Below, piece after piece: positions 28,601-63,637 of a DNA stretch of 64,000 bases. The notes under the pieces were generated by a model. That model saw only the letters and a list, made by a program, of their open reading frames with translations. It searched no databases and had not been told where the DNA came from. This stretch comes from a virus, in IMG/VR virus record IMGVR_UViG_3300025853_009406, positions 1 through 64,000 of that record. The stretch is one strand, 5' to 3'. A program made the translations under genes and the position numbers. Positions within the stretch are counted from its first letter, which is position 1. Every line of letters starts with the position of its first letter.

Positions 28601-29936
28601 TTTTGTATATGATTTGATCAACATCACCTTCTACTGGACCTGCAACACCTTGCAAACCCTGTAGACCTTGTAAACCTTGGTTACCTTGTAGACCCTGTAA
28701 ACCCTGGTTGCCTTGTAAACCTTGTAAACCTTGGTTACCTTGTAGACCCTGCATACCTTGCAGGGCAGCACTTAAGATAGTATCTTTCTTAAGTTGACCA
28801 TCATCCTGATCATAAAATAAGATATAATCTTCAGGAGCTGCTTGTGTTTGTATTCTATCTGAGATTGCACCTGGGTTAAAACTAGTTAAGTTTGATGCTG
28901 TAACACCAGATCCTAGTGTTGTAGCACTAAGAACTTCGTCGATATCAACATAATATTTTCCTCCGGCGGATGATACTCCTATATTTGCATTTGACTGCCA
29001 TGCATCAATATCATATTCATAAAGAAGAGCTCTTCTGATGCTTGTTGAACCAATACCAATAAAATTACCATCAAGATTCTGTAGATCAGTTTCCCTAGCA
29101 TTAAAGATAATAGATTCAGTAGTTAAAATAACGTCATCATTAAAGAAACTAATGCCATCACTGTTAAATCCAATAGGTGTTCCTTTAATAGACAAGTCAC
29201 CTTCAATATATACCAAACCATCTGAGAATGGTGCGATAGTAATAGAAGCAGGACCAGTAATCCTTGTTTGAGTAATACTTAGTGATGAAGTAGTATCAAA
29301 TCCAGTATAAAATGCATCTGCAGTTAGAATACCAGAAACTACGTTTTCAAATGATGGACTAGATCCAGAGGTAACTACACCAAAGTCGCCAATGTAGCGA
29401 TAGGCAACAATGTAAATATTACTTGAAGTTACTCCACTCGGAACAACTGATCCATTAAAGTTTAGGATGCCCGATGAATAATCAAAAAACCAAGTATCGT
29501 TTGATCCTGCACCAGCAGCAGATAGCTGCACCCCACCAGATGCAGGATCCCCTCTATAAACTTTAACAATGTAATCTGGACCAAAGCTAGGATCAATCCA
29601 GTTATTAACAGTACTTGAACTATTATTTCCGTATATTGATCTTGCAATAAATGCTCTATTACCACTAACAGTAGGGTCTACTGTCATTCTAAGGGCACTA
29701 CTAGTGCCATACACCTGTACAACAGGACCAGATGATGAAGGCGGTGTAGAAGGAATAAGACTAGATTCTGCCCAAATAGTATCTGCGCGTGTTACTATAG
29801 GGGAGGGTATAGCTTCTGCGAAAGGAGCTTTTTTAGTACCTGATAAAGTAGAATCCTCAGCTATACCAGTTTTGGATGCGGTATAACCTATCTTTTTTAA
29901 TAGAAAATCTAGCTTTTGTTCTTGAGATGCTGCCAC
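16689..29936 (-). CDS. Giant collagen-like fibre protein with C-terminal S74-type intramolecular chaperone
   Basis: GTG start; long (Gly-X-Gln)n tracts alternating with 15 ~120-130 aa globular repeats; C-terminal TSDIQLKENI...GVIAQELE...VNYSGL. Confidence 0.85.
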   Translation of the reverse strand: MAASQEQKLDFLLKKIGYTASKTGIAEDSTLSGTKKAPFAEAIPSPIVTRADTIWAESSLIPSTPPSSSGPVVQVYGTSSALRMTVDPTVSGNRAFIARSIYGNNSSSTVNNWIDPSFGPDYIVKVYRGDPASGGVQLSAAGAGSNDTWFFDYSSGILNFNGSVVPSGVTSSNIYIVAYRYIGDFGVVTSGSSPSFENVVSGILTADAFYTGFDTTSSLSITQTRITGPASITIAPFSDGLVYIEGDLSIKGTPIGFNSDGISFFNDDVILTTESIIFNARETDLQNLDGNFIGIGSTSIRRALLYEYDIDAWQSNANIGVSSAGGKYYVDIDEVLSATTLGSGVTASNLTSFNPGAISDRIQTQAAPEDYILFYDQDDGQLKKDTILSAALQGMQGLQGNQGLQGLQGNQGLQGLQGNQGLQGLQGLQGVAGPVEGDVDQIIYKNASNLPVGNDNLRFFNNQDLYVAGIVSASSLELGEEGQAIIVTSNSITGPGTILIDPAGVGDNTGLVRIKGNLVVDGETITISSGTLDIPDFKVAIAKSVSSEVLLDGAGIGIGSTSIEKTIVWEYATESIGINANVNIPATEAYKIGGNVVVDSTSLGTGVTDSNLRNVNPNLIFDRPQLTGDIQGSDYLLLYDTSAGNLKKATITDVSIQGVQGTQGRQGNQGNQGRQGNQGNQGNQGNQGNQGLQGNQGRQGNQGNQGNQGNQGLQGLQGNQGLQGVGDQGLQGNQGNQGNQGNQGLQGVGSQGLQGLQGGIGDRGGIRFQYVSSTTDADPGLGNFAYNNSSISAVTEIYIDNEDDLGNNQTNWYDVWDDTENPDRGYLYFISADILSGTTVNIFRINGANQVASGYYKIAVEYVTGTLPSNGDILTLFHTRTGIQGVQGNQGNQGNQGNQGNQGNQGNQGLQGNQGNQGNQGNQGNQGLQGNQGNQGNQGLQGLQGKLGDRGGVRYDFDSTTAAGTSGQGSLRYNNATAASITEIYFDDTDSFGSDQTGWYDTFDDTILNSGLNRGYIYVTSADSGGNVTSIFYVDGAVTDNTTYWTVPVTYVSGDIPSNGQEITVLFTKSGTQGVQGNQGNQGLQGNQGNQGNQGNQGNQGLQGLQGNQGTQGNQGNQGNQGNQGNQGNQGLQGLQGNQGNQGNQGNQGNQGNQGNQGLQGLQGMLGDRGGIPYNFDTSTTAGTTSDGDLRFNNSNPSNITALYFNDNDLFGIDQSLWYDTWDDTQVSVGENRGYIYLTSADSVNNISMIFSVNGAVTSNGTYYTVPVEYLTGTAPNNGQDLTAFFTQSGAQGLQGLQGLSGRNAETTYVYTFTSQTASANPGSGNLRFDNFTTQSSATEMYVSNSDGGGTSLADFFADISAYGIPTRQALCKIVDPVDSSQYHLFVVGNTTLQTGGATGWFSFDIESFYASSGNFSANDTVFLSFSLIGPQGVQGLQGLQGNQGNQGNQGNQGNQGNQGLQGNQGNQGNQGNQGNQGNQGLQGLQGLQGNQGNQGNQGNQGNQGLQGNQGRQGNQGNQGNQGNQGNQGLQGNQGNQGNQGNQGNQGNQGLQGLQGNIGNRGGVPYIFSTTTTNADPGNGIFRYNNATIGSVTEIYIDNLDDLGNDQTVWYDVWDDTQLNAGLSRGNLVITSADVTGTNVNVFNVVGAVTAETGYYRVPVAYVSGSLPTNSEKLVFNFTRSGVQGLQGLQGLQGPDGVSSGDTFEYFYSTSTTSGDPGSGYFRFDNTTIENSTEMYLDHADQNGSDLSDFYSFVNAYGSPGNKGFIKIQSQTNSNNFYIFRLGGVTLESAGVNGWSTLDLTDSVSVGSGFSNNDEIFISFGLAGIQGTQGNQGNQGNQGNQGLQGLQGNQGNQGNQGNQGNQGNQGNQGLQGLQGNQGNQGNQGNQGNQGNQGNQGLQGNQGNQGNQGNQGNQGNQGLQGNQGNQGNQGNQGNQGLQGNQGNQGNQGNQGNQGNQGNQGLQGNQGNQGNQGNQGNQGMLGDRGGIPYLFDTTTTANSGGQGRLRFNNSTIGSVTQLYIDDTDLFGVDQTAWYDTWDDTIVNSGLNRGYVYITSADASSNVSAVFFVDDSVVDNGAYYTVPVTYLTGVLPTNNQELTIFFTKTGVQGVQGNQGNQGNQGNQGNQGNQGNQGNQGLQGNQGNQGNQGNQGNQGNQGNQGLQGNQGRQGLQGNQGNQGNQGNQGNQGNQGNQGLQGLQGLQGLQGNQGRQGNQGNQGNQGLQGNQGNQGNQGNQGNQGNQGNQGLQGNQGNQGNQGNQGNQGNQGNQGLQGLQGMLGDRGGIPYLFDTTTTAGSGGQGRLRFNASSIASVTSMYFDDTDEFGIDQTAWYETWDDTTMDPGLNRGFIYITSADSSTNVSAVFEVDGAVTDNTTYHTIPVNYLTGTLPSNGQEVTVFFTKTGIQGVQGLQGNQGLQGNQGNQGNQGNQGNQGLQGNQGNQGNQGNQGNQGLQGNQGNQGLQGNQGNQGNQGNQGNQGNQGNQGLQGNQGNQGNQGNQGNQGLQGNQGNQGNQGNQGNQGNQGNQGLQGLQGVAAARTLGSNVRYSNNTTIANPGSGNFRLNNTTFTSATTLAISEFDTVGVDQSAVLNLLDYSDNELKSTFAIQKIGDASVYVVGVIKSDRIDQGTWRQYTVEILISNGTFNNLEDCFFSIQPQGNQGLQGLQGNQGNQGNQGNQGNQGNQGLQGLQGLQGNQGRQGNQGNQGNQGLQGNQGNQGNQGNQGNQGLQGNQGNQGNQGNQGLQGNYGSRGGTPYVFSTATGDFDPGNGTIRYNNGTIGSVTQIFIDNLDGLGNNQTGWYNTWDDTQVNPGLVRGYLYLTSSDSNETTVDVFQITGAVTVASGYYKIPVSHVSGSLPANNEELSVNFVASGIQGLQGNQGNQGNQGNQGNQGNQGNQGNQGLQGNQGRQGNQGNQGNQGNQGLQGNQGNQGNQGNQGNQGNQGNQGLQGNQGNQGNQGNQGNQGNQGNQGLQGLQGISAARSLGSVFEYNSSTANTNPGNGHIGFNAAPTANFTQFRISEIDIETTDVQGILSSIDYSNNSPRSVITVQREANNLDYIVFSVESYRNDQGTWRYFTVTKIAQTGTFTDGDRVFVVIQPVGNQGLQGNQGNQGNQGNQGNQGNQGNQGVQGLQGNIGNRGGVPYDFQGSTGGVPGSGTVTYNSSTFSSITQLRIHDIDQLSNDQTNWISSWDDTALTGGLNRGYIYLISASSDANTVNIFEVDGTATNNGTYWTIPVNPISGTVPSNGTELTLAFTRSGVQGVQGLQGNQGNQGNQGNQGNQGNQGNQGLQGNQGRQGNQGNQGNQGNQGNQGNQGLQGNQGRQGNQGRQGNQGNQGNQGNQGLQGNQGRQGNQGNQGNQGNQGNQGNQGLQGNIGNRGGVPYTYAGTGTSSGTSGEIRFNNGSNPTVVYVNDIDDLGNNQSNWITSWDDTTLNGGLNRGYIYIISALSSDNTVTILEVDGNITDNGSYYSIPVNYLSGSTPTASEEVTLTFTRSGVQGVQGLQGNQGNQGNQGNQGNQGNQGNQGLQGNQGNQGNQGNQGNQGNQGLQGNQGNQGLQGLQGNQGNQGNQGNQGNQGNQGLQGLQGNQGNQGNQGNQGNQGNQGNQGLQGNQGNQGNQGNQGNQGNQGLQGNQGNIGNRGGVPYTYSGTGAPSSGQIRYNNSTFASITAIQVHDIDQLSNDQSNWIASWDDTALTGGLNRGYIYVISALSSDNTVNIFEVDGSATNNGTYYTIPVNPISGSTPSVSEEVTLAFTRSGVQGLQGNQGNQGNQGLQGNQGNQGLQGNQGNQGNQGLQGNQGNQGLQGNQGNQGLQGNQGNQGNQGNQGNQGLQGNQGNQGNQGNQGNQGNQGLQGNQGNQGNQGNQGNQGNQGNIGNRGGVPYAYGGTGAPSSGQIRFNNATASSVTSITVNDIDALSNNQSGWIASWDDTTLTGGLNRGYIYIISALSSDNTVVIFEVDGNITDNGSYYTIPVNYLAGASPSVSEEVTLAFTRSGVQGLQGNQGNQGNQGNQGNQGNQGNQGNQGLQGNQGRQGNQGNQGNQGNQGNQGLQGNQGRQGNQGNQGNQGNQGNQGLQGNQGRQGNQGNQGNQGLQGNQGNQGRQGRQGNQGNQGTQGNQGNQGNQGLQGNQGRQGNQGNQGNQGRSNQGVQGNQGTQATQGNQGNQGRSNQGVQGNQGTQATQGNQGNQGNQGTQGTQATQGTQGRQGNQGNQGNQGNQGLQGRQGTQGTQATQGTQGLQGNQGLQGLSNQGVQGNQGLQGTQGVQGTQSSQGVQGKSGTEISITNDTTTNATRYPTFVNQTSGTVSTEYVSSTKLQFNPSTGQLSATDFNSTSDIQLKENISYLSNSIDKLEKISSIRFTWKDNGNVSYGVIAQELENIIPELVNNNGNNKTVNYSGLIPFLINALVEDHNYIKVLENRVSNLENK
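17130..28760 (-). repeat. 9-nt-unit tandem repeat tracts encoding GNQ/GLQ/GRQ/GTQ
   Basis: Recurrent GGTAACCAA/GGAAACCAA/GGTCTACAA units with synonymous variation. Confidence 0.95.
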
Positions 29937-32847: not shown

Positions 32848-35800
32848 TTACTCTCCTCCGAGTGCTAGAATGAATGGGGTTAGGGTTGAGAACAACGACT
32901 TGGAATATGCCGTTCCAGAGATAGTACCAGTATTCTGGTTAATGATTAGTCCGTCACCAATCTTGAAGTTACCTGACTGATCAGTACTGGTGAATACGAC
33001 CAGACCACCATTCAGATTCACAGTTTCATTTTCAGCAATAGTAACGCCACCATTCTGAGGAAGTGCAGCTTTTACATCGATACCAGAACCAATGTATTCA
33101 AATGCATGAGATGATGCGAGAACTCTACTTTGCTTGTAGAACTCAACTTCCATTCCAGCGGTTACTTCATATGGAACCTGTGCGTCAAGGGTGATTGTTG
33201 AGATTCCTGCAGAAGGATATGTTGCCTTATTAACTGTGTAGTAACTTGGATACATATCAATCACGATTCTTGCAGGTGTTCCTCCACCTATAGGAGCACC
33301 GATTGTAACGGTTGGAGGAACAATGAATCCTCTACCGCTAGAAACAACTTCAACTCCAGTTACCTGACCATTCTCGACTGTTGCGATTGCCTGTGCAGGT
33401 ACGCCCCAAGCAGTTGTTGGATTACCAATAGTAACTTCTGGAGTACTGGTATAACCAGAACCTTTAGTTGTTACTCTAATCTTGTCAACCTGATAGTATA
33501 ACTTATCAAACACAGTTACTTGACCGTCGAATGGTCTCTGTGGATTAATCTGTACTGTACCACCAGAAGTATAGAAGTGTGGGAATGGACCTTTACCTAC
33601 GTTAGCGGTAAAGTCTGTTGAAGTTGTAGCAACCGAGCATGTGGTTGGTTGACCCTTAACGATTGCGTCAGTTGCGATACCAATGAGGTTATCAATAGTA
33701 TCTTGAACATTTTGGCAAGCGTCTGGATCGTTATTGGAGTTAAGAACAGGATCAGGAGCGAGCTTGAAGTTCTTGCTATTTAGTTGATTATTGATAGCAA
33801 GTTGCATATAGTCAGCAGATGCACGGAAAGCAGTTACGGTTTCAACTTCTTCACCGATTAGTGCATCAGAGAGTGGCTTGCCAGTCTCTTGATCGAAGTA
33901 GTAGTTGGTTGCACTAATGATATTTTTATTAGTGAAGTTAAGAAGATCATTCTTAACTGCATCAACGATGTAACCAATGTCTCTTCTGCACTTAGTCTCT
34001 TGATCTAGGAGTCTACCTGCATTAGGTAAGAAGTTATCTAGTTCAGTTAGAGTACCGATTCCGATTACAGTTGTAACGATTCCGATTCTATTGTCAACTA
34101 CGTCCTGAACATCTTGACAGGTTTCAGGATTACCCGATCTTGTATAAGTGATTACTGGACCAACACCGTAGTTTGCACCACCGAAGGATAGAGTTAGATC
34201 CTTAGTATAGAGTTGGTTAGTTAGAGCACCCTTCATGTAATCACCTGCCTTACCGAAAGCAGTTACAGATTCAGATCTTTCACCATACAGACCTGGAGTT
34301 AGTGGTTGACCAGTTCCAGTGAAGTATTGCTTAGTGAAGTCTCTTGAATAAGTATTACCTCCGAGGAATACGTCAGTTGAAACAGCGTCAACTAGGTATC
34401 CAATGTCTCTTGCACACTTATAACCACCTGGGGAAGAAGTAGTTCCGAGACCAACGAAGTCATCTGCATCAGTTCCATAACCAACTGTCTGACCAAACTC
34501 GCCTGGTTGTAAGTAGAAATAACCATTGTTGATACCGTATGTTCCATCATAAAGTGCTGCAGTGTTACCTGCGGCAACTACGACTGTTACAATACCAACT
34601 AGGTTTTCAATGTTTGCCTGAACATCTGCACAGGTTTCACCATTACCCGAAGCATTATACTGGATATTACCACCAGCACCATTGTAAGATGCAGGACCGA
34701 AGGTTAAAGTTAGATCCTTAGAATATAGTTGGTTAGTTACTGCTCGCTTCATGAGAGGTTCAGCAGCTTCAAATGCGGTTAGTGAAGGTGCGAGTTCACC
34801 GTCTAGTCCGCCTCTGATTACTGATCCATCAGCGTAGTAGTATTGCTCAGAGAATCCTCTGGAATATCTATTACCACCAGTAAACACGTCAGTTGATACT
34901 GCATCAACTAAGAATCCAAGGTCTCTAGCACACTTGTAACCGCCAGGGTTCTCAGTGGTTCCGATACCAGTTCCTCTGTCGAAGATTCCAGTATCATAAG
35001 TTAGAGCGCCGAATGAAGCAGTGCTTCCAGCACCAAGAGAAACAGTTACAATACCAACCAGAGTATCAATGTTATCCTGAACATCTAAGCAGGAATTCTC
35101 GTTTCCAGACTGTAGAACAGGGATAGAGGAACCGATACCATAGTACTGAGGACCAGATGAAATACCAAGATCCTTAGTATAGAGTTGGTTAGTGATTGCA
35201 TCCTTCATCCACTCACCGCCACCCATTAAACCAACGATTGTTGGAGCAACTTCATTTCCATCAATGTGAATAGCACCAGACTGGTTGAAGTATTGCTTGG
35301 TAAACTCTTGTGAGTATCTGTTACCAGAAGTGAATACGTCGGTTGCGACGGCATCAACAAAGAATCCAACGTCTCTTGCACACTTATAACCACCTGGAGT
35401 GTTAGTTGTACCAACACCAACTGATTGATCAAATAGACCAGTGTTGAGTGGGAATGTAATAGAAGCAGTGCTTCCAGCACCAAGAGAAGATGTTACGATT
35501 CCAGCGAGAGTATCAATGGTATCTTGAATATCCTGACATGCAGTTGAAGAAGTGTTAGCAACGTCTGAACCCTCATTTCCTGCATTATATGTTGGGTTAC
35601 CAACTGAGATTGTTAGATCAGAGTATGTAGCGCCAACTAAAGAGTTAGTAATTGCATTGAGCATGTACCCTCTTGCTTGATCAAAGACATAGAGTGACTC
35701 ATCCATCTCACCCTGTAGACCATTAGAGATTAGTGAACCATTTTCAAAATATTGGAAGGTGAACTCAGAAGCATAAGTATTACCACCAGTTAGTACATCA

Positions 35801-38800
35801 AGAGCAACTGCATCAATGAAGAATCCAGTATCTCTCTTACACTTCTCTTCAACTGAAGCGAAGTTGAATGAACTGAATAGTGGGTTATTGACTGCATCGG
35901 TGAACGCTGCGCCAACGATTACCTCCTTATTGAGTTGAATCATTCTGTAAGCATCATAATATCTTGATCTTCCGTTAGACTGTGCGTCACCTGGGAAGTA
36001 GAATGCATCATAAGCATCATAACCTTGAGCAATAGAACCGATAGATCTATCGATAACTTCTTGCTTGTTCTGTTGGATTAGACGATATGAATCGAAGTAT
36101 CTGTACTGCTCATCATCTCTCTCATCAAATCCAGTGTTAAGAGTTGGGAGTTGTGAAGTGGTTCCTAGACCAACTGCAACAGTTGCAATACCAACTAGGT
36201 TCTCGATTAGGTCTTGAACATCTGCACAAGATGATGCGCTTCTGTTATCATTAGTGACGTAATCGGGAGAAATAGTTAGGTCTTGAGCATTGAGTTGGTT
36301 AGTTACTGCTCCTCTTGCGAGATCGCCAAGTGCAGTGAATGCGGTAACTGACTCAGACTCTTCACCGAGTAGACCATCAGAGATTGGATTACCATTACCA
36401 TCGAAGTATGATAGAGCGAATCCAACAACATTATCGTTAGAACCTGCCCATACATCCTCTGCGAGTGCGGAGTGTAGATAACCAAGATCTCTAGCACACT
36501 TAAATCCGCCTGGGGATGCTACAGTACCAACACCCGACTGGTTAAAGTAACCAACATTTAATGTTGGAAGACTATTGGTTGATCCAAATCCTACTGCAGT
36601 GGTAACCACTCCAACTAGGTTTTCAATGTTTGCTTGGACATCAACACAAGCTTCAGCATTACCAGAAGGTAGTACAGGGATGGAAGAACCAGCGCCTGCA
36701 TAAATCGCTTTACCTGGTGAGATTGTTAGATCTTTGACGTTGAGTTGGTTAGTGATTGCCTTTCTTGCATAGAATCCTGCGTAATCGAAGGAAACAACAC
36801 TTGGAGACTCTTCGCCAGTCAGACTTGCTGTTGGTGAACCTGCCCCATCAAAGTAGAATAGAGTGAAATCTCTTGTGTAGCTATTACCACCTGTAAATAC
36901 ATCAGTTGCAACGGCATCAACAAGGTAACCAATATCTCTTGCACACTTAGTACCACCAGGAGATAGAGTACCGAAGTCTTCCATCTGGAGTGATAACTTG
37001 GTGAATGGATCAGTGTTGACTACAAAGTTACCAGTATTGAGAGCATCGCCAGAAGGTAGTTGTGTAGTGGTTCCGAGACCAACTGCAACTGTTACGATAC
37101 CAACTAAGTTCTCAATAGCAGACTGAACATCAATACAAGCATTAGCATTACCAGAGATTAACACAGGTAGTTTAGTATCATCGGTACCGTATCTAGCAGT
37201 ACCAGAAGAAATGCCAACATCCTTAGAGTTAAGTTGGTTGGTAACTGCCTTCTTCATGAAGGTCTCTGCAGAATCAAATGCTACAAGTGATTGTGCTTCT
37301 TCACCAACCAGACCATTGCTGATTGGAAGTCCAGCGCCATCAAAGTATTGAAGAACGAACTCTCTAGAATAGCTGTTGCCTCCAGTAAATACGTCGGTTG
37401 AAACTGCATCAACTAAGAATCCAATATCTCTAGCACACTTGAATCCACCTGGGGATGAAGTAGTACCAATACCAGATTGTGAGAAGTAACCATCGTTGAT
37501 TGATGTAGGAACGTCTGCGAATGTTGCGGTTGTACCAATAGAAACAACTGCAGTAACAACTCCAACGAGAGTATCAATGTTATCCTGAACATCAATACAT
37601 GCTGCTGCATTACCCGAAGGAAGAACTGCAATATCTCCACCAGCACCACCATAAGTAGCAGCACCAGAAGAAATGCCAACATCCTTTCTATAAAGTTGGT
37701 TGGTGATTGCGTCCTTCATGAACTCACCAGCAGCAATGAATGCAGTGTTTGAAGGAGCTTCTTCGCCTAGTAGACCTGTCTTAATCCATCCACGATAGGT
37801 TGGTTCATATGACTTGACAGAATCGATTGTTGTTCTTACGAATGTATGTGCAGACTGTGGAAGATGCTTGATTGCTCCAGCGATTGCACTTACAAATGTA
37901 TGTGCTGTTTGTGGTTCATGTCTAATAGCATTACACTCAGCACGTACAAATGTGTGTACAGAACCTGATGCAGAACCAGCATTTCCAACATTAACTGTGA
38001 ATGTACCAGTCTGCCTCTCAAGACCGTTTGCAGATGCACTTACAAATGTGTGAGTTCCAGTGTAGTCAGCAGCACCAATATTAATCTTGAAGGTGTTATC
38101 AGTCTTCTCACTGATCTGTAACCAGCGACCTGATGGATAATCATATCCAGCGCGTGGATATGACTTAGATACTGTGTTACCATCTAGTTCGCAAGTGAAG
38201 GTTAGTGAACCATCATCAAGTTTAATATAATCTTCATTAGCAAATCCATGAGAAGCAACTGTTAGAACAACATCTCCAGTTGCAGGGTCATAAGTTGCTG
38301 CAGTTACAGTATGAGTGGAAACGCCAACTTCATTGATCGCAGTTGCGATACCTGAGATTGGATTGCCTGCTGCAGGATATGCATGTTCAGTAGCATTTCC
38401 ATCCTGGTCACAAGTGAAGATCATTGACTCATCTTCAATAATGACTGCACGACCAACGCCAAGACCATGCTGACCAACAGTAACAGTTAGATCACCAGTT
38501 GCTGCATTATAAGTAGCAGCAGTTGGATCAAAGTACTTGTTAGGACCAGACTTACCTACATTAACGGTTAGAGAATCATCTGTAACACCAGTAATCTTGA
38601 TTGATCTACCTGCGTATGGATCGATTCCTGGACGTGGATATGTCTTCTGTGCTTGATTATTATCAAATGCACAAGTGAAGGTGAAAGAGTTGTCCTCGAT
38701 GATAACACCCTCTCCAACACTCAGTGAGTGCTCACCAACAGTAACGGTGAAGTCACCAGTTGCAGGATCATATGTTGCTGCAGTTGGGTTGAATGACCAG

Positions 38801-41800
38801 TCAGTACCAGAAGCACCAACATTAACAGTCACTGATGTTGCACTAGTTCCAGTAATCGTTAGAGGAGAGTTATATGCAACTTGACCTTTTGCTGGTAGAG
38901 AGTGCTCACTCTTATTGCCATCCATTGCACAAGTGAAAGTGAAGCTTTCCTTGTCTAGGAAGATAACATCAGATGTTTGTAGTGGGTGATCTGCACCAAC
39001 AATCATCGTGAAGTCGCCAGTTGCAGGATTATAAGTTGCAGAAGTTGGTGTCCAACCTGCTGCCTCTTGGAAGTTATTTTGTAGATAACCAATAGCGTAG
39101 GAGTTACCTCCAGTAAATACGTCAGTTGAAACAGCGTCAACTAAGAATCCAAGATCTCTAGCACACTTAAGTCCACCAGGAGAATAGGAGCTAATACCAA
39201 GTGCCTGGTTAAACTCACCTACGTCTAGAGTTCCTTGACTTGTAGGTAGTTCTGAAGTTGTACCGATACCTACAGCGTAAGTAACAATTCCGACTAGTGC
39301 ATCAATACTATCCTGAACATCTAGACATGCATTTGCATTACCAGATCTTAGAACCTCAATGTTAGGACCGCCACCTCCGAAGTATGCTTTACCCGAAGAA
39401 ATGCCAACATCCTTATTGAAGAGTTGGTTAGTTACTGCATCCTTCATGTATTCGCCAGCAGATTCAAATGCGACGACTGAAGGACCTTCTTCACCTAGAA
39501 GACCATTAATGATTGGAGCAGCATTATCAAAATACTGCAATGCAAATCCATCTGCATAGTAGTTACCAGCAGTGAATAGGTCAGTTGAAATAGAATCGAT
39601 GAAGAAACCAAGGTCTCTTGCACACTTATAACCACCTGGTGATGAAGTAGTACCAACACCAACAGACTGGTTGAAGTAACCATAGTTGATAGTTGCCGTT
39701 ACATCAGATGCAGTTGCAGTGGTTCCTAGACCAACAACTGAAGTAACGATACCGATTAGGTTATCAATGTTGTTCTGAACGTCAATACATGAAGCTTCGT
39801 TACCAGATCTTAGAACAGCAATATCACCTCCACCACCACCATAAGAAGCAGGACCAGATGAAATACCAAGATCCTTAGTATAGAGTTGGTTAGTGATTGC
39901 GTCCTTCATGAACTCACCAGCTCCGATGAATCCATATAGAGACTGTAGTTCTTCTTCGTATAGACCCTCACTGATTGGATTACCAGTTCCATCATCGAAG
40001 TACTCAAGGATAAACTCTCTAGAATAGAGGTTACCGCCAGTAAATACGTCAGTTGAAACTGAATCGATTAGGAATCCGATGTCTCTAGCACACTTGAATC
40101 CTCCTGGAGTTGCAGTGGTTCCGATACCTGCTTGGTTGAAGATACCGAGATTTCTTGTACCAGCGAAGGAGGTTGTATTTGCCTCAGTAATAGCATCAGT
40201 TACGATTGTAACTAGGTTTTCAATGTTTGTTTGTACGTTAGCACAAGCACCAGTATCAGTATTTGAAGATGCTAGAGGATCAGTTGTAATACCAACATCA
40301 GTATAGGTTAGGTTGTTAGCAATAGCTAACTTCATTCTGTCTCTTGCTTCATTGAAAGCGTAGATGGATTGAACCTCTTCGCCACCAATACCATTATCAT
40401 AGATAGCATCATTCTCAAAATATTGTAGAGTAAAGTCTTGAGAATATGCGTTACCACCAGTTAGAATGTCAAGAGAAATGGCATCAATAAAGTAACCAAG
40501 GTCTCTCTTACACTTAGTTTCAGTGCTAAGGATACCAGGATACTGAGTTCTTGTAGCATTCCAAGAACCATTAATAATCTCATCTTTGTTTTTCTGGATC
40601 AGACGATATGAATCATAGTATCTGGAACGTGCATTTGTCTCTTCATCACCAGGGAATACCCAATCAGTTGGATAAAGATCATAGTTAACAGTGATGTTAC
40701 CAATAGATCTATCAATAATTTCTCTTCTGTTCTGTTGGATTAGACGATATGAATCGAAGAATCTTGATCTTTCATTAGTTTGAAGATCGTTAGGGAAGTA
40801 GAAATCAGGATAACTGATAGAGATAGATGCTAGTGACTTATCAATAATCTCCTGTCTATTCTGTTGGATTAGACGATATGAATCATAGTATCTGGATCTT
40901 GCTGTAGTTTGAGAATCGCCTGGGAAATAAAAGTCTGGATGCTCTAATGAAATAGCAGCAAGTGACTTATCAATAACTTCTTGTCTGTTCTGCTGGATTA
41001 GGCGATATGAATCGAAATATCTTGAGCGAGCATTGGTCTCAAGATCTCCAGGGAAGTAGAATTGATCATACTTAGTTGCAATAGAAGCAAGTGACTTATC
41101 AATAATCTCTTGCTTGTTCTCATTGATTAAACGATATGCATCATAGAATCTTGATCTTGCATTGGTCTCTGTATCGCCAGGGAAGAAGAAATCGTCATAG
41201 TTGTCATAATCTAATGAGATAGAAGCAAGGGACTTATCAACAATTTCTTGCTTGTTCTGAAGGATTAGACGATAAGAATCATAGAATCTAGATCTATCAG
41301 TCGTCTCTGCATCATCAGGGAAGTAGAAATCTGGGTGATATAGACCGATAGTCGCAAGAGACTTATCAATGATTTCATCTTTATTTGAGTTAATAAGATT
41401 AAATGAATCTTTAAATCTGTTTCTTGAAGTATCTGGGAAGTAGAAATCTGGGTGGCCAATAGCAATCTGTGCTAGCGACTTATCAATAACTTCCTGTCTG
41501 TTCTTCTGGATCAGACGATATGAATCAAAGAATCTTGATCTTGCGTTTGTCTGATTATCATTAGGGAAATAGAAATCAGGATGCTCAACAGCAATCTCTG
41601 CAAGTGATCTATCAATGATCTCTTGCTTATTATGTTGGATTAGACGATATGAATCAAAGAATCTTGATCTTGAGTTAGTCTCTTCTTCGCCTGGGAATAC
41701 AAAATCAGGATGCTTATAAGAGATAGAAGCAAGTGCCTTGTCAAGAATCTCAGTTTTGTTTGCTTCGATTGACTCGCTAGCATCACTATATCTACCAGGA

Positions 41801-42897
41801 GCAACAGACTTAACTTCAAAAATAGTACCGTAGTTACCTGTTGGATATAGAAGTGTCTCCTGACCACCGTCTGAAGTGCAAGTAAATCCTAAACCTGCAA
41901 TGGTAACACCCATACCAACACTTAGTTCGTGTTGTCTGTCGAGTGTGAATGAAGTAACTCCTGTTACATGATCATAAACAGCATCAACAACATTCATTAC
42001 AGGGGCGTTTGCATCAATCTTAATCTCAAAAGTAGATGCATCTACACCTGCATTTGATGTTACGACACCAACATATTTGAGAGGTCCGACGCCATCAGCG
42101 ACAAGACCGAAGTTGCCGAATGATGAGTTAGAGTTGGTAAGGTCGCAAGCACCACCTGACTGGCAGAGGATTGCGGTATCTGAACAGATGGTGAACATGG
42201 ACACCAACTGAGCGAATGCTTCGTTGAAGATTTTAGCACCTAAACCACCTGGGTTAATCTGGGTATAGGAGTCAAGAACCATGGACTTAATAGGTCCAAT
42301 GGCATACTTACCATCAATGTTTAGACCAATAGTGCCTGGAATGAAGTTTGTACAGTTCTGAATATATGGCGATTGGTCAATATAAGGAACAACTTCTGGG
42401 TTAAATGTAACGATTGCGCCATCGGATTTTTGTGCTGGTCCAATGAATGACATCTCTGCGATGTAGCATCCATTGTCTAACCAGAACAAGTCTCCTTGAT
42501 TTTTTGGTGTAACCGTAACTTCACGAAGTGAGTCGCCAACGACTGACACATTGTCGGGAAGTACGATTGGGTTATCTTCTAGATAAACTCCAGCACTAAT
42601 TTTAATAACAGTTCCTGGGACAGACTCTGCGACGGCAGCTTTAATGGTTCTTTTTGCGTCTCCGAGTTTCTTACCTGTGTTGTTGTCGTTACCATCTTGT
42701 GTTACATATAGGACATTAATAACGGTCGCACCAGCACCAACTCTTACAATGTCTGTTCCAATACCTGGCCTATTTCTGGCCATGTAAAGTTCGCCATCAT
42801 TAGTATTAATGGCCATTTCTCCTAGAGGGAGATCAGAGACTGTAGGTTTTTTGTTAGGTACTGAAGACCTTTTGAATCTAATTTTAGGACTTGCCAT
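32848..42897 (-). CDS. Giant putative virion protein with pectin-lyase-like N-terminal region and 12 nested phycobiliprotein-like domains
   Basis: Fibre-type N-terminus (IRFKRSS..P..L..GE.AIN), YVTQDGND/GDSLR/SPYIQNCT; 12x KC(A/K/R)RD; 12x C-x-(D/N)-(V/I)-Q; 12x D-x4-I-x2-N-x3-I. Confidence 0.8.
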   Translation of the reverse strand: MASPKIRFKRSSVPNKKPTVSDLPLGEMAINTNDGELYMARNRPGIGTDIVRVGAGATVINVLYVTQDGNDNNTGKKLGDAKRTIKAAVAESVPGTVIKISAGVYLEDNPIVLPDNVSVVGDSLREVTVTPKNQGDLFWLDNGCYIAEMSFIGPAQKSDGAIVTFNPEVVPYIDQSPYIQNCTNFIPGTIGLNIDGKYAIGPIKSMVLDSYTQINPGGLGAKIFNEAFAQLVSMFTICSDTAILCQSGGACDLTNSNSSFGNFGLVADGVGPLKYVGVVTSNAGVDASTFEIKIDANAPVMNVVDAVYDHVTGVTSFTLDRQHELSVGMGVTIAGLGFTCTSDGGQETLLYPTGNYGTIFEVKSVAPGRYSDASESIEANKTEILDKALASISYKHPDFVFPGEEETNSRSRFFDSYRLIQHNKQEIIDRSLAEIAVEHPDFYFPNDNQTNARSRFFDSYRLIQKNRQEVIDKSLAQIAIGHPDFYFPDTSRNRFKDSFNLINSNKDEIIDKSLATIGLYHPDFYFPDDAETTDRSRFYDSYRLILQNKQEIVDKSLASISLDYDNYDDFFFPGDTETNARSRFYDAYRLINENKQEIIDKSLASIATKYDQFYFPGDLETNARSRYFDSYRLIQQNRQEVIDKSLAAISLEHPDFYFPGDSQTTARSRYYDSYRLIQQNRQEIIDKSLASISISYPDFYFPNDLQTNERSRFFDSYRLIQQNRREIIDRSIGNITVNYDLYPTDWVFPGDEETNARSRYYDSYRLIQKNKDEIINGSWNATRTQYPGILSTETKCKRDLGYFIDAISLDILTGGNAYSQDFTLQYFENDAIYDNGIGGEEVQSIYAFNEARDRMKLAIANNLTYTDVGITTDPLASSNTDTGACANVQTNIENLVTIVTDAITEANTTSFAGTRNLGIFNQAGIGTTATPGGFKCARDIGFLIDSVSTDVFTGGNLYSREFILEYFDDGTGNPISEGLYEEELQSLYGFIGAGEFMKDAITNQLYTKDLGISSGPASYGGGGGDIAVLRSGNEASCIDVQNNIDNLIGIVTSVVGLGTTATASDVTATINYGYFNQSVGVGTTSSPGGYKCARDLGFFIDSISTDLFTAGNYYADGFALQYFDNAAPIINGLLGEEGPSVVAFESAGEYMKDAVTNQLFNKDVGISSGKAYFGGGGPNIEVLRSGNANACLDVQDSIDALVGIVTYAVGIGTTSELPTSQGTLDVGEFNQALGISSYSPGGLKCARDLGFLVDAVSTDVFTGGNSYAIGYLQNNFQEAAGWTPTSATYNPATGDFTMIVGADHPLQTSDVIFLDKESFTFTCAMDGNKSEHSLPAKGQVAYNSPLTITGTSATSVTVNVGASGTDWSFNPTAATYDPATGDFTVTVGEHSLSVGEGVIIEDNSFTFTCAFDNNQAQKTYPRPGIDPYAGRSIKITGVTDDSLTVNVGKSGPNKYFDPTAATYNAATGDLTVTVGQHGLGVGRAVIIEDESMIFTCDQDGNATEHAYPAAGNPISGIATAINEVGVSTHTVTAATYDPATGDVVLTVASHGFANEDYIKLDDGSLTFTCELDGNTVSKSYPRAGYDYPSGRWLQISEKTDNTFKINIGAADYTGTHTFVSASANGLERQTGTFTVNVGNAGSASGSVHTFVRAECNAIRHEPQTAHTFVSAIAGAIKHLPQSAHTFVRTTIDSVKSYEPTYRGWIKTGLLGEEAPSNTAFIAAGEFMKDAITNQLYRKDVGISSGAATYGGAGGDIAVLPSGNAAACIDVQDNIDTLVGVVTAVVSIGTTATFADVPTSINDGYFSQSGIGTTSSPGGFKCARDIGFLVDAVSTDVFTGGNSYSREFVLQYFDGAGLPISNGLVGEEAQSLVAFDSAETFMKKAVTNQLNSKDVGISSGTARYGTDDTKLPVLISGNANACIDVQSAIENLVGIVTVAVGLGTTTQLPSGDALNTGNFVVNTDPFTKLSLQMEDFGTLSPGGTKCARDIGYLVDAVATDVFTGGNSYTRDFTLFYFDGAGSPTASLTGEESPSVVSFDYAGFYARKAITNQLNVKDLTISPGKAIYAGAGSSIPVLPSGNAEACVDVQANIENLVGVVTTAVGFGSTNSLPTLNVGYFNQSGVGTVASPGGFKCARDLGYLHSALAEDVWAGSNDNVVGFALSYFDGNGNPISDGLLGEESESVTAFTALGDLARGAVTNQLNAQDLTISPDYVTNDNRSASSCADVQDLIENLVGIATVAVGLGTTSQLPTLNTGFDERDDEQYRYFDSYRLIQQNKQEVIDRSIGSIAQGYDAYDAFYFPGDAQSNGRSRYYDAYRMIQLNKEVIVGAAFTDAVNNPLFSSFNFASVEEKCKRDTGFFIDAVALDVLTGGNTYASEFTFQYFENGSLISNGLQGEMDESLYVFDQARGYMLNAITNSLVGATYSDLTISVGNPTYNAGNEGSDVANTSSTACQDIQDTIDTLAGIVTSSLGAGSTASITFPLNTGLFDQSVGVGTTNTPGGYKCARDVGFFVDAVATDVFTSGNRYSQEFTKQYFNQSGAIHIDGNEVAPTIVGLMGGGEWMKDAITNQLYTKDLGISSGPQYYGIGSSIPVLQSGNENSCLDVQDNIDTLVGIVTVSLGAGSTASFGALTYDTGIFDRGTGIGTTENPGGYKCARDLGFLVDAVSTDVFTGGNRYSRGFSEQYYYADGSVIRGGLDGELAPSLTAFEAAEPLMKRAVTNQLYSKDLTLTFGPASYNGAGGNIQYNASGNGETCADVQANIENLVGIVTVVVAAGNTAALYDGTYGINNGYFYLQPGEFGQTVGYGTDADDFVGLGTTSSPGGYKCARDIGYLVDAVSTDVFLGGNTYSRDFTKQYFTGTGQPLTPGLYGERSESVTAFGKAGDYMKGALTNQLYTKDLTLSFGGANYGVGPVITYTRSGNPETCQDVQDVVDNRIGIVTTVIGIGTLTELDNFLPNAGRLLDQETKCRRDIGYIVDAVKNDLLNFTNKNIISATNYYFDQETGKPLSDALIGEEVETVTAFRASADYMQLAINNQLNSKNFKLAPDPVLNSNNDPDACQNVQDTIDNLIGIATDAIVKGQPTTCSVATTSTDFTANVGKGPFPHFYTSGGTVQINPQRPFDGQVTVFDKLYYQVDKIRVTTKGSGYTSTPEVTIGNPTTAWGVPAQAIATVENGQVTGVEVVSSGRGFIVPPTVTIGAPIGGGTPARIVIDMYPSYYTVNKATYPSAGISTITLDAQVPYEVTAGMEVEFYKQSRVLASSHAFEYIGSGIDVKAALPQNGGVTIAENETVNLNGGLVVFTSTDQSGNFKIGDGLIINQNTGTISGTAYSKSLFSTLTPFILALGGE

Positions 42898-59328: not shown

Positions 59329-59510
59329 AGAAAAAAGGAGGGTTATTACACCCCCCTTTGTAGGTCTTTTCATGCACGCCACTTGCTCTTTAGAGAAGCA
59401 AGAAACTCATATTAGGGTCATATGACTCCACCACACATTTTTGAGAGAAATGAGAAACTCCAGGGGTCAATGACCATCCCGACCAGGATTTTTATAGACT
59501 CTCCATGTCT
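59329..59510 (-). ncRNA. Structured leader RNA, probably the manA RNA motif, ending in an intrinsic terminator
   Basis: Intergenic, upstream of the M6P isomerase gene, near tRNAs; duplicated GGTCA/GAGTCA..TGACC hairpins plus GAGTTTC..TTCTCT modules; AAAGGGGGGT..ACCCTCCTTTTTT terminator. Confidence 0.6.
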
Positions 59511-62225: not shown

Positions 62226-62696
62226 TCAAGTCCAAAGGTTATGGTCATATTCCCAGTGGCAATTTGGACATAATGGCATTATGTTTTCCTTTGAGTTTAT
62301 AACACTAATCATAACTTCTTCACTAAAAGAAGATATTGGTTTTATGTGAGCAATTTCTATATGTTTATTATATCCACATTTAACACATTCGGTAAATCCA
62401 AGTTTTTTTCCAAATGCTCTTGCTCGTGTTCTTACCAAAGCAAATGCTGAGGACTTGTGATGTTTTTCATATATTGCTTCTTTAAGGGTCATATCTTTTA
62501 CTTCTCTATCTTTTAACCATATCAAATAGTGTTCTTTACAACGAGCACGATTTGCTGTTATTGCTTTTCCACAATCAATACATTTATGCTCTGGTTTTCT
62601 TTTAGGAACTTTTTTATTATTATAAGAAGCAGCACAACTTCTTCCACAAAATTTTGGATTTTTTGTTTCTACTTTACAAAACAAGCACTTATTCAT
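62226..62696 (-). CDS. Free-standing HNH homing endonuclease with N-terminal zinc-finger motifs
   Basis: CxxC/FCGRSC, CIDCG..RCKEH, CVKCG..IEIAHIKPI...ENIMPLCPNCHWEYD. Confidence 0.9.
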   Translation of the reverse strand: MNKCLFCKVETKNPKFCGRSCAASYNNKKVPKRKPEHKCIDCGKAITANRARCKEHYLIWLKDREVKDMTLKEAIYEKHHKSSAFALVRTRARAFGKKLGFTECVKCGYNKHIEIAHIKPISSFSEEVMISVINSKENIMPLCPNCHWEYDHNLWT

Positions 62697-62700
62697 AATG

Positions 62701-62739
62701 GAACCTTAAAGTTATTTTTATTTATAAACCTTAAGGTTC
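62701..62739 (-). promoter_or_regulatory. RBS-sequestering hairpin with late promoter in its loop
   Basis: GAACCTTAAGGTT / AACTTTAAGGTTC 13-bp stem (one G-U); TATAAATA at 62719-62726 in the loop; AAGG in the 3' arm just before ATG 62696. Confidence 0.8.
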
Positions 62740-62745
62740 AAAAAA

Positions 62746-63028
62746 CGTCTCAGGAGGGACTCGAACCCCCGACCAACTGCTTAGCTTACCACTACGGATT
62801 TCCCCGCCATTTCTGTTTGTGGTCTGGACTTTCTCTTTACCATATCCTAAAAGGACTTAGGCACTTCCCGTCAAGTCTCTACACCTTCATCTTACGATGC
62901 TTGGCTCGGGATTATCATAGTCTTAAGACTTTAGAGTTCCCCGAATTTGAGAAGTTACATTTATAAAGTTTCCCTTATAAAGCTCCTTTGTTAAAGGCAG
63001 ATGCTCTTTCCAACTGAGCTACTGAGAC
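62746..63028 (-). tRNA. trnR: tRNA-Arg(TCT), intron-split (exons 63028-62994 and 62784-62746)
   Basis: Spliced: GTCTCAGTAGCTCAGTTGGAAAGAGCATCTGCCTT^CTAAGCAGTTGGTCGGGGGTTCGAGTCCCTCCTGAGACG. Confidence 0.92.
62785..62993 (-). mobile_element. Group I (IC3-like) self-splicing intron, 209 nt, no ORF
   Basis: Core elements AAATTCGGGGAA (P), AATCCCGAGC (Q), GTAGAGACTTGACGGG (R), GAGAAAGTCC (S); exon CUU pairs with GAG; terminal G. Confidence 0.92.
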
Positions 63029-63114
63029 AAGAGACCTCCCTGTTTGTGCATCGTTGAGAGGCATGGGAGGGGTGAGACTTATACGAAGTGTGGACCTTCG
63101 CTGCTCATAAGACA

Positions 63115-63143
63115 ATCATACCAGTTAAAGATTTGATTGTCAA
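63115..63143 (-). promoter_or_regulatory. Sigma70-type promoter for the tRNA cluster
   Basis: TTGACA-N17-TATGAT. Confidence 0.7.
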
Positions 63144-63210
63144 GTGTTTTGAGGTCTTACTGGATTTATGAAGTGGCCAGTTTCTACACTAGTTAAAACC
63201 TCATTTTTAT

Positions 63211-63396
63211 TTATTCATCGCCCAAAACAAGATATGTCATTTCTTCTTGATCTGGAGGAATATTGATCCATTCATCAAACTCTTCTGCAATCGCTACTGC
63301 GTCAAACTGAGATTCAATATCACCTTCTGCAAGGTCATGGATTCTATTGATTGACCATTCACGAATAAGTTTTACTGGTTCAATCGTCTTTTCCAT
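63211..63396 (-). CDS. Small hypothetical protein (61 aa)
   Basis: MEKTIEPVKLIREWSINRIH...AIAEEFDEWI. Confidence 0.7.
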   Translation of the reverse strand: MEKTIEPVKLIREWSINRIHDLAEGDIESQFDAVAIAEEFDEWINIPPDQEEMTYLVLGDE

Positions 63397-63637
63397 AATA
63401 ATCTTTTCTGAAGTATCTGCTGAGGATGTTACTATTGTAGTATGCTGGTTCTCCTGTGTCAAGGGATTCGGTGAGGACGTTGTTCTGGAAGAGTTGTTTT
63501 GTTTCTTCAAAGTTTGTTTTGCCTTTTGTTTTGTGGAGGGAGAGGATAGTCCGTCTGAATATCCCCTTGCCATATTTTTCCACATCTTCTTTAAGTTCTG
63601 GGCAAGATCCATAATAGTTTTTATAGGTGTTATCATC
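63380..63637 (-). pseudogene. 5'-truncated GIY-YIG (Seg-like) endonuclease
   Basis: KNYYGSCPELKEDVEKYGKGIFRRTILSLH...YYNSNI; in-frame TAA at 63638-63640, GIY-YIG half absent. Confidence 0.7.

Follow-up and report, generated by a model that had tools for sequence, protein, structure and literature searches.

Introduction

Small group I introns that interrupt the anticodon loop of bacterial tRNA genes are the closest described relatives of the element analysed here. Those of Azoarcus tRNA-Ile(CAU) and Agrobacterium tRNA-Arg(CCU) are said to have been described by Reinhold-Hurek and Shub in 1992. Both are named in the available portion of another article (PMC5733544), and a further intron of this kind occurs in tRNA-Leu(UAA) of cyanobacteria and plastids. 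Here we analysed a stretch of 64,000 nucleotides, called the window, which spans positions 1 to 64,000 of the IMG/VR virus record IMGVR_UViG_3300025853_009406 and in which a first-pass annotation, made from the letters alone, had proposed an IC3 intron in the anticodon of a phage tRNA-Arg(UCU) gene. Our analysis indicates that a functional tRNA-Arg(UCU) of a freshwater cyanophage-like virus is very probably split between U34 and C35 by a 209-nt IC3-like intron that contains no open reading frame (ORF).

According to the accessible text of a review from 2014, all phage introns then known were located in protein genes, despite the many tRNA genes that phages carry (PMC3984707), and the accessible parts of a group I intron database paper of 2025 mention no phage tRNA hosts (PMC11835236). 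Our literature search, whose coverage left out most subscription journals so that an earlier report is possible, did not turn up a group I intron described in tRNA-Arg(UCU) or in any phage tRNA. The 'group I introns' of 22-49 nt that PMC5733544, in the portion available, lists for cyanobacterial tRNA-Arg(ACG), Gly and Lys were set aside as prior art because they are too short for group I ribozymes. As far as the literature seen goes, the chemistry and the fold of the window intron are ordinary, and its host gene, its viral setting and the breadth of its family are new in print.

Among phage endonuclease systems, cyanophage S-PM2 carries a group I intron in psbA and a free-standing endonuclease, F-CphI, which take part in 'collaborative homing' (Zeng, Bonocora and Shub 2009, as related in passages of the review PMC3984707); the same passages describe this process for two phage systems. 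In phage T4, SegB is a free-standing GIY-YIG homing endonuclease encoded in the tRNA gene cluster (excerpts of PMC2330249 and PMC2988022).

Results

A tRNA-Arg(UCU) gene interrupted after U34

The split tRNA-Arg(UCU) gene was located by sequence and with ARAGORN at 63028..62746 on the minus strand, the strand on which every window feature given with coordinates below lies. Its 5′ exon of 35 nt (62994..63028), delimited by sequence, by ARAGORN with introns allowed and by a match to Synechococcus phage S-SZBM1, holds the acceptor arm, the D arm and the 5′ strand of the anticodon stem and ends in C32, U33 and U34. The 209-nt intron follows (62785..62993) and ends in a G at 62785. The 3′ exon of 39 nt (62746..62784) starts with C35, U36, A37 and A38 and continues through the 3′ strand of the anticodon stem, a 5-nt variable loop, the T arm, the acceptor strand and G73, with no CCA encoded. 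When joined, the exons give a tRNA of 74 nt that ARAGORN folds as a standard cloverleaf, with the 7-nt loop CUUCUAA (U33, purine at 37) and the anticodon UCU. The first-pass annotation had described a 209-nt insert after U34 (CUU^CUAA) with a terminal G, and a 74-nt tRNA upon its removal, and every one of these elements was found where it had been placed.

When introns were permitted, ARAGORN identified the genomic stretch as tRNA-Arg(tct) containing an intron of 209 nt. At default settings, the program called three other tRNAs in the window and no tRNA at 63028..62746, which bears out the earlier warning that standard tRNA finders may miss this gene. The tRNAscan-SE 2.0 paper likewise states, in the part of its text available, that the program was not designed for detecting such introns (PMC8450103). 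Because tRNA finders at default settings, as ARAGORN here, miss split genes, phage tRNAs are undercounted in annotations.

Two intron-less sequences defined the junction. The annotated, uninterrupted tRNA-Arg of Synechococcus phage S-SZBM1 equals the joined exons at 73 of 74 positions, and a contig in the DNA metagenome run X2 joins 62784 to 62994, skipping exactly 209 bases. Together they fix the junction as CUU^CUAA; the joined exons, the S-SZBM1 allele and the X2 contig agree on the anticodon UCU that had been predicted for it. Chance is excluded by these two sequences and by the E-value of the Rfam match given below. We also applied a join filter that required a T before the 5′ cut, an intron-terminal G and, in the product, four or more of the 5 stem pairs and a loop of 7 nt in which U33 and a purine at 37 are present. 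On the window, the join after U34 with G62785 was the only one to agree with the other evidence. A second candidate, a 198-nt intron leaving an 87-nt 'stop' (UUA) tRNA, also passed the filter and was set aside because it did not match the intron-less alleles.

Splice sites located elsewhere, for instance after U33, would give a product other than tRNA-Arg(UCU). Three relatives (L029, L062 and L035; collected loci are numbered with the prefix L) do have their intron after U33, and ARAGORN accepts many joins if any T...G pair is allowed. The strict filter, however, leaves the U34/G62785 join in agreement with the other evidence, that join is the one represented by the S-SZBM1 gene and the intron-less DNA contig, and the guide sequence of the window intron is GGAG, not the GGGGGC of the relatives with the U33 site. 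We therefore regard splicing at other sites as extremely unlikely.

In Escherichia coli, the arginine identity elements are A20, C35 and a purine at position 73. The D loop AGUUGGAAA (with A20), C35 and G73 were all read in the sequence of the joined exons, features that would suit charging with arginine. The window has a G+C content of 37%, and AGA accounts for 341 of the 576 arginine codons in its 35 long ORFs. Because UCU reads AGA, and AGA is dominant, the split gene specifies the tRNA for the commonest arginine codon of the virus, and this is the gene that default annotation missed. No other tRNA-Arg was found by ARAGORN at default settings in the 64,000-nt window, the scan having covered the window and not the rest of the record.

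The phage setting assumed by the first-pass annotation was corroborated. Window proteins matched PHROG families, among them a tail-fibre-like protein and glycosyltransferases, and 84 of the 101 phage records that matched an 8-kb piece in blastn searches were Synechococcus phages. The IMG/VR virus record measures 116,740 bases and is rated 61% complete, and most of the sequencing runs that hold the locus are labelled freshwater metagenomes. The contig could in principle be cellular, cyanobacterial or plastid, and misfiled as viral, in which case the intron would be of the ordinary cellular sort; IMG/VR records may contain fragments of cellular DNA, and this one is incomplete. Such an origin is hardly credible in view of the tail-fibre and other PHROG matches, the predominance of Synechococcus phages among the blastn matches, the phage-style tRNA cluster, a wcaG RNA as in S-SZBM1, the match of the tRNA and its abiF-like leader to isolated cyanophages, and the G+C content.

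The insert has the architecture of a tRNA-anticodon group I intron

A cmscan search, which had been suggested as a check of the annotation, matched the Rfam model RF00028 (Intron_gpI) at 63004-62803 with 66.5 bits, above the gathering score of 50, and an E-value of 1.2e-14. The match ran end to end over model positions 1-253, and it was the only one to this model in the 116,740-base virus record.

The fold was tested on alignment A1, which comprises 35 related pre-tRNA introns (34 viral ones and that of the window) and 58 pairs in 13 helices. Standard pairs filled 93.4% of the pair cells, compared with 76.2% in shuffles and 28-44% when the partners were slid by 1-3 columns. Compensatory changes were present at 35 of the 58 pairs, and none of 500 shuffles reached any of the five measures. 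RNAalifold, run unguided, recovered the anticodon stem, P2, P3, P4, P5, P6, P8 and the P9 hairpins, and 30 of its 43 predicted pairs showed compensatory changes. The two exons are able to base-pair and so form the anticodon stem, a property of other pre-tRNA introns too; this helix is 99.3% paired in the alignment, with compensatory changes in three of its four pairs. Among the works cited by PMC3984707 is one whose title concerns this requirement in the Anabaena intron.

The intron was mapped from P1 to P9 by combining the Rfam match, the helix map and covariation. An internal guide, GGAG (62983..62986), pairs with C32, U33 and U34 and with the first intron base, forming C32-G, U33-A and a U34-G wobble at the splice site; it contains the GAG that had been singled out as the guide. 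The P1 helix (helix 2) was 93% paired over the 35 sequences, and the splice-site pair was U-G in 31 and C-G in 2 of the 33 sequences with letters at both positions. The GAAA tetraloop of L2 (62969..62972) caps a P2 of 9 bp, all of whose pairs showed compensatory changes. P5 consists of 2 bp and a 12-nt mini-hairpin, P5a (62919..62930), which among close relatives was common only to L262 in alignments A1 and A2; the P4-P6 domain spans about 60 nt and has no P5abc. An 18-nt core (62868..62885) contains the P6′ strand, J6/7, the 5′ strand of P7 with a bulged A, J7/3 and the start of the P3 3′ strand. This 18-mer was found exactly in at least 116 stretches of viral contigs and at least 120 stretches of bacterial genomes from many phyla. 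The 3′ strand of P7, AGUCC (62826..62830), forms five pairs with G(A)GACU at 62879-62874 and makes a pseudoknot with P3. P7, G(A)GACU/AGUCC with its bulged A, is the predicted guanosine-binding element and was invariant in 35 of 35 sequences; the invariance of its 5′ strand is built in, because it lies inside the 18-mer used as search query. P4 and P7 in the Rfam alignment and the helix map correspond to the P/Q/R/S core of the first-pass annotation.

IC3 introns are characterized by peripheral GNRA loops (L2, L9) with receptors in P8 and P5. In the window intron, the GAAA of L2, a motif in P8 that may act as receptor and the GAAA loops of P9a and P9b are present by sequence. P8 (62840..62861) contains CCUAAG...UAUGG, the 11-nt GAAA-tetraloop receptor motif. 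P9 is a three-way junction of P9 (CCAC/GUGG), P9a and P9b (helices 11-13), with compensatory changes in 7 of 10 pairs; both P9a and P9b (62795..62806) are GAAA-capped, and the terminal G lies four bases past the junction. The name of the P8 motif and its pairing with GAAA loops follow excerpts of PMC7913685. IC3 introns without a P5abc extension are described in the available text of PMC11835236. These data support the assignment of the intron to the tRNA-anticodon (IC3-like) kind of group I introns that had been proposed for it; the term IC3 refers here to architecture and homology, Rfam having one model for all group I introns.

The layout had been likened to that of the cyanobacterial Leu(UAA) intron, and the likeness held when the window was compared with the Leu(UAA) introns collected here and with what is known of such introns. 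Like the cyanobacterial and plastid tRNA-Leu(UAA) intron, the window intron lies between U34 and position 35, has a C-U-U exon end with a GAG guide and a U-G wobble, is small and ORF-less, has no P5abc and is flanked by exons that form the anticodon stem with each other; the 18-nt core of the window recurs without change in viral and bacterial Leu(UAA) introns. Unlike them, it resides in Arg(UCU) and in a phage genome, has the extra P5a hairpin and has an HNH gene as neighbour. It also resembles the introns of Azoarcus tRNA-Ile(CAU) and Agrobacterium tRNA-Arg(CCU), which are small IC3 introns of about 200 nt in the anticodon loop with GAAA loops in L2 and L9 and helix receptors, the receptors of the window intron being predicted ones, and the bacterial tRNA(CAU) and tRNA-Arg(CCU) introns recovered here have the same 18-nt core. 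Those introns, in contrast, are inserted after position 36 (CAU^ or CCU^) and have GUG- or GGG-type guides, whereas the window intron is inserted after U34; the isoacceptors Arg(CCU) and Arg(UCU) are distinct, as are their insertion sites.

Evidence for and against splicing

Following the known chemistry of group I introns, the primary transcript would form P1 between C32-U33-U34 and GGAG, with the U34-G wobble at the splice site. An external guanosine would attack after U34, the freed 3′-OH of U34 would attack after G62785, and exon ligation would release the 74-nt tRNA with the loop CUUCUAA, which would read AGA.

Several observations weigh against this reading. P1 is short, with three exon pairs and one intron pair, the intron helix map contains no convincing P10, and the anticodon stem has a U27-U43 mismatch, leaving four of five pairs. 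The advantage of the whole pre-tRNA over shuffles in folding is modest (z -2.2), and the IC3 assignment was made on architecture and homology only. The contigs of RNA runs X13, X16 and X17 contained no ligated junction of the window gene. Contigs of two metatranscriptome runs crossed the 5′ junction unspliced (from 62884 or 62870 to 63400) without mismatches; such contigs could stem from precursor RNA or from DNA that had entered the library. A skip of exactly 209 bases was seen only in a run that is listed as DNA. The missing ligated junction, the short P1, the lack of P10 and the stem mismatch would also be in keeping with a decayed intron that no longer splices and that has left the split gene as a tRNA pseudogene. 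The remaining evidence makes this decay very unlikely. All core helices are intact, and the 18-nt core is identical to hundreds of other copies. A window-type intron was kept in 22 further viral contigs (11 distinct sequences) whose pre-tRNAs are 86-90% identical; their changes cluster in loops, and P2 and P9b show paired ones. The exons are nearly identical to the annotated tRNA-Arg of an isolated phage, AGA is the dominant arginine codon, and the scanned window holds no second tRNA-Arg.

Other leads were discarded. Junction-like loose ends in X17, considered as spliced product, belong to other intron-less tRNA-Arg genes and have mismatches. Contig cover is interrupted within the intron at the shared 18-nt core, and these gaps carry no information. 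A role of the intron in protection against anticodon nucleases was rejected, since the intron makes no difference to the mature tRNA.

Related introns occupy several tRNA isoacceptors with matching guides

We collected 80 viral stretches with the 18-nt core, which represent 63 distinct regions. With introns permitted, ARAGORN recognised a split tRNA in 52 of them and none in the other 28. Its intron placement was often wrong (anticodons ccg, ggc, gaa, aac and cta), and we therefore replaced it by an exhaustive T...G join test, which admitted far too many joins before it was restricted to products with a paired stem and with U33 and a purine at 37 in a 7-nt loop. Duplicates, loci with unclear junctions (L007, L016, L027), long or uncalled inserts (L039, L067, L080) and the 28 uncalled loci were left out of alignment A1. 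In the resulting 35 sequences, the intron was located after U34 in Leu(UAA) (17), Lys(UUU) (5), Arg(UCU) (4, including the window), Thr(UGU) (2), and Glu(UUC), Ala(UGC) and Ser(UGA) (1 each); after U33 in Arg(UCU) (3); and after position 36 in Met/Ile(CAU) (1). L076, one of the two sequences that A1 and the tree list under Thr(UGU), more probably has Lys(UUU) as its host, with the insertion after U35, which its guide, GGAA, fits better.

The guide tracks the insertion site, being GAG for CUU^, GGGGGC for GCCU^ (after U33) and GUG for CAU^. Seven isoacceptors, Leu(UAA), Arg(UCU), Lys(UUU), Glu(UUC), Ala(UGC), Thr(UGU) and Ser(UGA), combine an insertion after C32-U33-U34 with a GAG guide. In tRNA-Arg(UCU) itself, the introns of L029, L062 and L035 (identical to L037 and L038) lie after U33 and have GGGGGC, and those of the window, L036 and L071 lie after U34 and have GGAG, an apparent shift of the insertion site by 1 nt with the guide changed to match.

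The tree of introns was built by maximum likelihood from 186 columns, with guide and exons removed, and rooted at the midpoint only. The window fell in a supported set of seven (97/90), consisting of three Arg introns after U33, three Arg introns after U34 and one Ala(UGC) intron, nested among Leu(UAA) introns; the fourth Arg intron after U34, L068, was placed elsewhere, with Lys and Thr introns. The nine host labels needed 11 changes on the tree (minimum 8), compared with a mean of 17.3 for shuffled labels, and none of 200 shuffles was as low. This distribution fits repeated moves between tRNAs whose loops start with C-U-U, and the suggestion in the first-pass annotation that introns transpose among tRNAs sharing CUU gained support from the seven isoacceptors and from the nesting of the Arg clade. 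The tree, short and midpoint-rooted, shows no direction of the moves, and its 186 columns and its root count against leaning on it heavily.

The annotation had also put forward Arg(UCU) as a new host site. This stands with respect to bacteria, where the tRNA could be called in 56 of 80 collected stretches and was tRNA(CAU), Leu(UAA), Arg(CCU), Leu(CAA), Lys(UUU) or Tyr(GUA), with Arg(UCU) in none of the 56, and with respect to the literature searched. It does not stand as a peculiarity of the window. A 16-nt string made of the P9 end, the terminal G and CUAAGC occurred in 50 viral contigs, and ARAGORN found an intron-split tRNA-Arg(UCU) in 41 of them, with introns of 197-359 nt in several different tRNA bodies. 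When the window locus was compared by blastn with 50,697 GenBank phage records, intron similarity was found only in a 735-kb assembly and in one uncultured marine contig. The former, an uncultured phage assembly present as two records, contains an unannotated tRNA-Leu(UAA) with a 205-nt intron (L003 1443-1733, in LR756501), which scored 56.6 bits against RF00028 in a narrower scan and was not listed in a three-locus Rfam scan at the gathering threshold.

The window and its relatives mean that the statement that phage introns occur only in protein genes no longer holds. They extend the list of hosts by tRNA-Arg(UCU) and, in viral contigs, also by Lys, Glu, Ala, Thr and Ser tRNAs, and they provide a natural series of co-changing guides and insertion sites that is useful for ribozyme retargeting studies.

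The collection held further observations on hosts. Many of the viral 'tRNA-Leu(UAA)' hosts (L010, L019, L044, L046, L052 and others) are only 74-76 nt when spliced and have a short variable loop; because this is not the long-arm class II shape of bacterial tRNA-Leu, their amino-acid identity is in doubt. Bacterial copies (L121-L200) included Leu(CAA) after U33 in four cases, Lys(UUU) in three and possibly Tyr(GUA) in one, and bacterial tRNA(CAU) copies were found at two sites, after 33 and after 36. The intron-split tRNA of L027 can be read with the anticodon CAU or, alternatively, with CUA (amber suppressor). The same 18-nt core without a tRNA call was present in L005, L031, L045, L049, L051, L055, L057, L058, L063, L074, L078 and L079, and in L024, L026 and L032. 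By eye, the flanks of uncalled core loci resemble conserved reading frames of at least two different genes, which would place the intron family in phage protein genes as well. L067 and L080 have Leu(UAA)-type introns that apparently contain an intron ORF, with an HNH-like CxxC...H motif in the P1-P2 region of L067; these would be composite mobile introns of the same family.

A free-standing HNH gene beside the split tRNA and the question of homing

A gene for a free-standing HNH endonuclease of 156 amino acids (62226..62696) starts 49 nt downstream of the tRNA and matches Pfam HNH_2 (E 2.4e-8), Pfam HNH (E 1.2e-4) and PHROG families of HNH endonucleases. An ORF-less intron with a free-standing endonuclease gene beside the split gene is the layout of collaborative homing. 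As with psbA and F-CphI of S-PM2, the presence of intron and endonuclease varies among relatives; unlike that pair, the host of the window intron is a tRNA gene and the enzyme is an HNH protein for which the insertion site is a presumed target. As with T4 SegB, which targets the tRNA region, a homing endonuclease gene stands among phage tRNA genes, and the differences are the nuclease family and the lack of an intron in the T4 case.

The intron lineage may have been mobile among phage tRNA genes with a C-U-U loop start, its guide being retuned at each host, and its homing at the DNA level may be aided by the neighbouring HNH enzyme. By analogy with the described pairs, the enzyme would cleave in or close to the anticodon arm when a co-infecting phage has a tRNA-Arg(UCU) gene free of the intron, repair would copy intron and HNH gene together, and the intron would shield its own genome by splitting the HNH target, that is, 'collaborative' or trans homing. 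We put forward this combination of a mobile lineage and HNH-aided homing tentatively, at somewhat less than an even chance.

Searches for relatives of the HNH protein gave 74 viral loci, 48 of them with a full-length match. Among these 48, an intron-split tRNA-Arg(UCU) was located 45-50 nt upstream in 21, an intron-less one 48-58 nt upstream in 10 and an intron-less one 4-13 nt downstream in 5; one locus had no upstream DNA and 11 were arranged otherwise. All 21 intron-bearing loci encode HNH relatives of at least 85% identity. Conversely, 21 of the 25 relatives at that identity with upstream DNA had the intron; of the other four, two carried an uninterrupted tRNA-Arg and two an insert of 45 nt at the same site. 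L262 combines the intron (90% identical) and the HNH protein (85% identical) with a tRNA-Arg(UCU) whose body is quite unlike that of the window gene, which speaks for lateral transfer of both elements together. The anticodon arm CTGCC-TTCTAA-GCAG was intron-split in 21 of 22 intron-bearing alleles and occurred in none of the 40 intron-less tRNA-Arg(UCU) genes of HNH loci; it was intact and intron-less in S-SZBM1, which has no HNH gene at that place.

Other counts weaken a functional tie between intron and enzyme. The correlation with the anticodon arm is explicable by plain co-inheritance, and 18 of the 41 loci with an intron-split tRNA-Arg(UCU) had no such HNH gene in the 700 bases downstream, 3 of the 18 having a window-type core. 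In addition, 15 HNH loci adjoin an intron-less tRNA-Arg. The contigs found by HNH search and those found by the junction string overlap heavily, and the two samples are therefore not independent. The link between intron and HNH gene is not obligatory, as each occurs with and without the other.

The same counts would also fit if the intron is real and spliced and the HNH gene is an independent, SegB-like 'intronless homing' element, the intron having arrived by reverse splicing (with reverse transcription and recombination) or by ordinary phage recombination. Reverse splicing, in particular, would fit an intron family found in at least seven isoacceptors that share only a short P1 target, mostly C-U-U, as guide-directed insertion predicts, and also the 1-nt shift between U33 and U34 with its matching guide change. 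An independent enzyme is harder to reconcile with the intron in 21 of the 25 close HNH relatives, with the joint occurrence of both elements in the different tRNA body of L262 and with the lack of the CTGCC..GCAG arm from every intron-less HNH-adjacent allele. We see this alternative as a serious possibility, albeit a rather doubtful one. If HNH-aided homing is the correct reading, the locus would be the first collaborative-homing pair aimed at a tRNA gene, and it offers a testable pair of intron and endonuclease at such a gene.

More broadly, phage tRNA clusters may hold a large, unrecognised reservoir of a single IC3 intron lineage that hops between isoacceptors by retuning 3-4 nt of the guide, 1-nt site shifts within tRNA-Arg(UCU) included, and that in cyanophages has teamed up with an HNH enzyme that would target the anticodon arm of tRNA-Arg(UCU); we offer this picture as a conjecture that could well fail. 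If true, phages would be plausible carriers of tRNA introns between bacterial phyla.

Two loci with an 85% HNH relative, L264 and L265 (~2333-2453), contain a tRNA-Arg-like gene with a 45-nt insert at the same loop position and an altered 3′ half of the loop. The insert may be the remnant of a deleted intron, or the gene a pseudogene.

Other features of the locus and the window

The tRNA and the HNH gene are separated by a 13-bp hairpin (62701..62739), whose loop contains TATAAATA (62726-62719) and whose 3′ arm covers the AAGG just before the HNH ATG. The hairpin folds with -14.7 kcal/mol (z -3.5), with none of 200 shuffles as good, and in L241, L251, L252 and L262 both arms have changed while the stem is maintained. 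This layout resembles that of T4 homing-endonuclease genes, in which a late promoter is combined with a hidden ribosome-binding site, and it may have the same function here.

On the other side, 5 nt upstream of tRNA-Arg(UCU), we found an abiF RNA motif (RF03085; 63034..63070) with 53.8 bits against a cut-off of 37. The abiF-like hairpin, tRNA-Arg(UCU) and the HNH gene form a conserved module, and abiF occurs with tRNA-Arg in L241, L251, L254, L262, L275 and L301. In phage S-SRM01, too, this abiF-like leader precedes a tRNA whose anticodon loop is the same, and the pairing of abiF with tRNA-Arg is kept there and in many viral contigs whether the intron is present or absent. In a phage, such a copy joined to a tRNA leader may act as a decoy or may just serve as a hairpin for processing. 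The Rfam family name links RF03085 to the abortive-infection gene abiF, and the motif was also seen at L002 1551-1587.

Elsewhere in the window, two giant ORFs encode 4415 amino acids (16689-29936) and 3349 amino acids (32848-42897). A wcaG RNA motif (RF01761, 53.9 bits; 59368-59462) lies upstream of a gene cluster encoding nucleotide-sugar epimerase and aminotransferase functions, and S-SZBM1 also has a wcaG RNA (L001 2881-2979).

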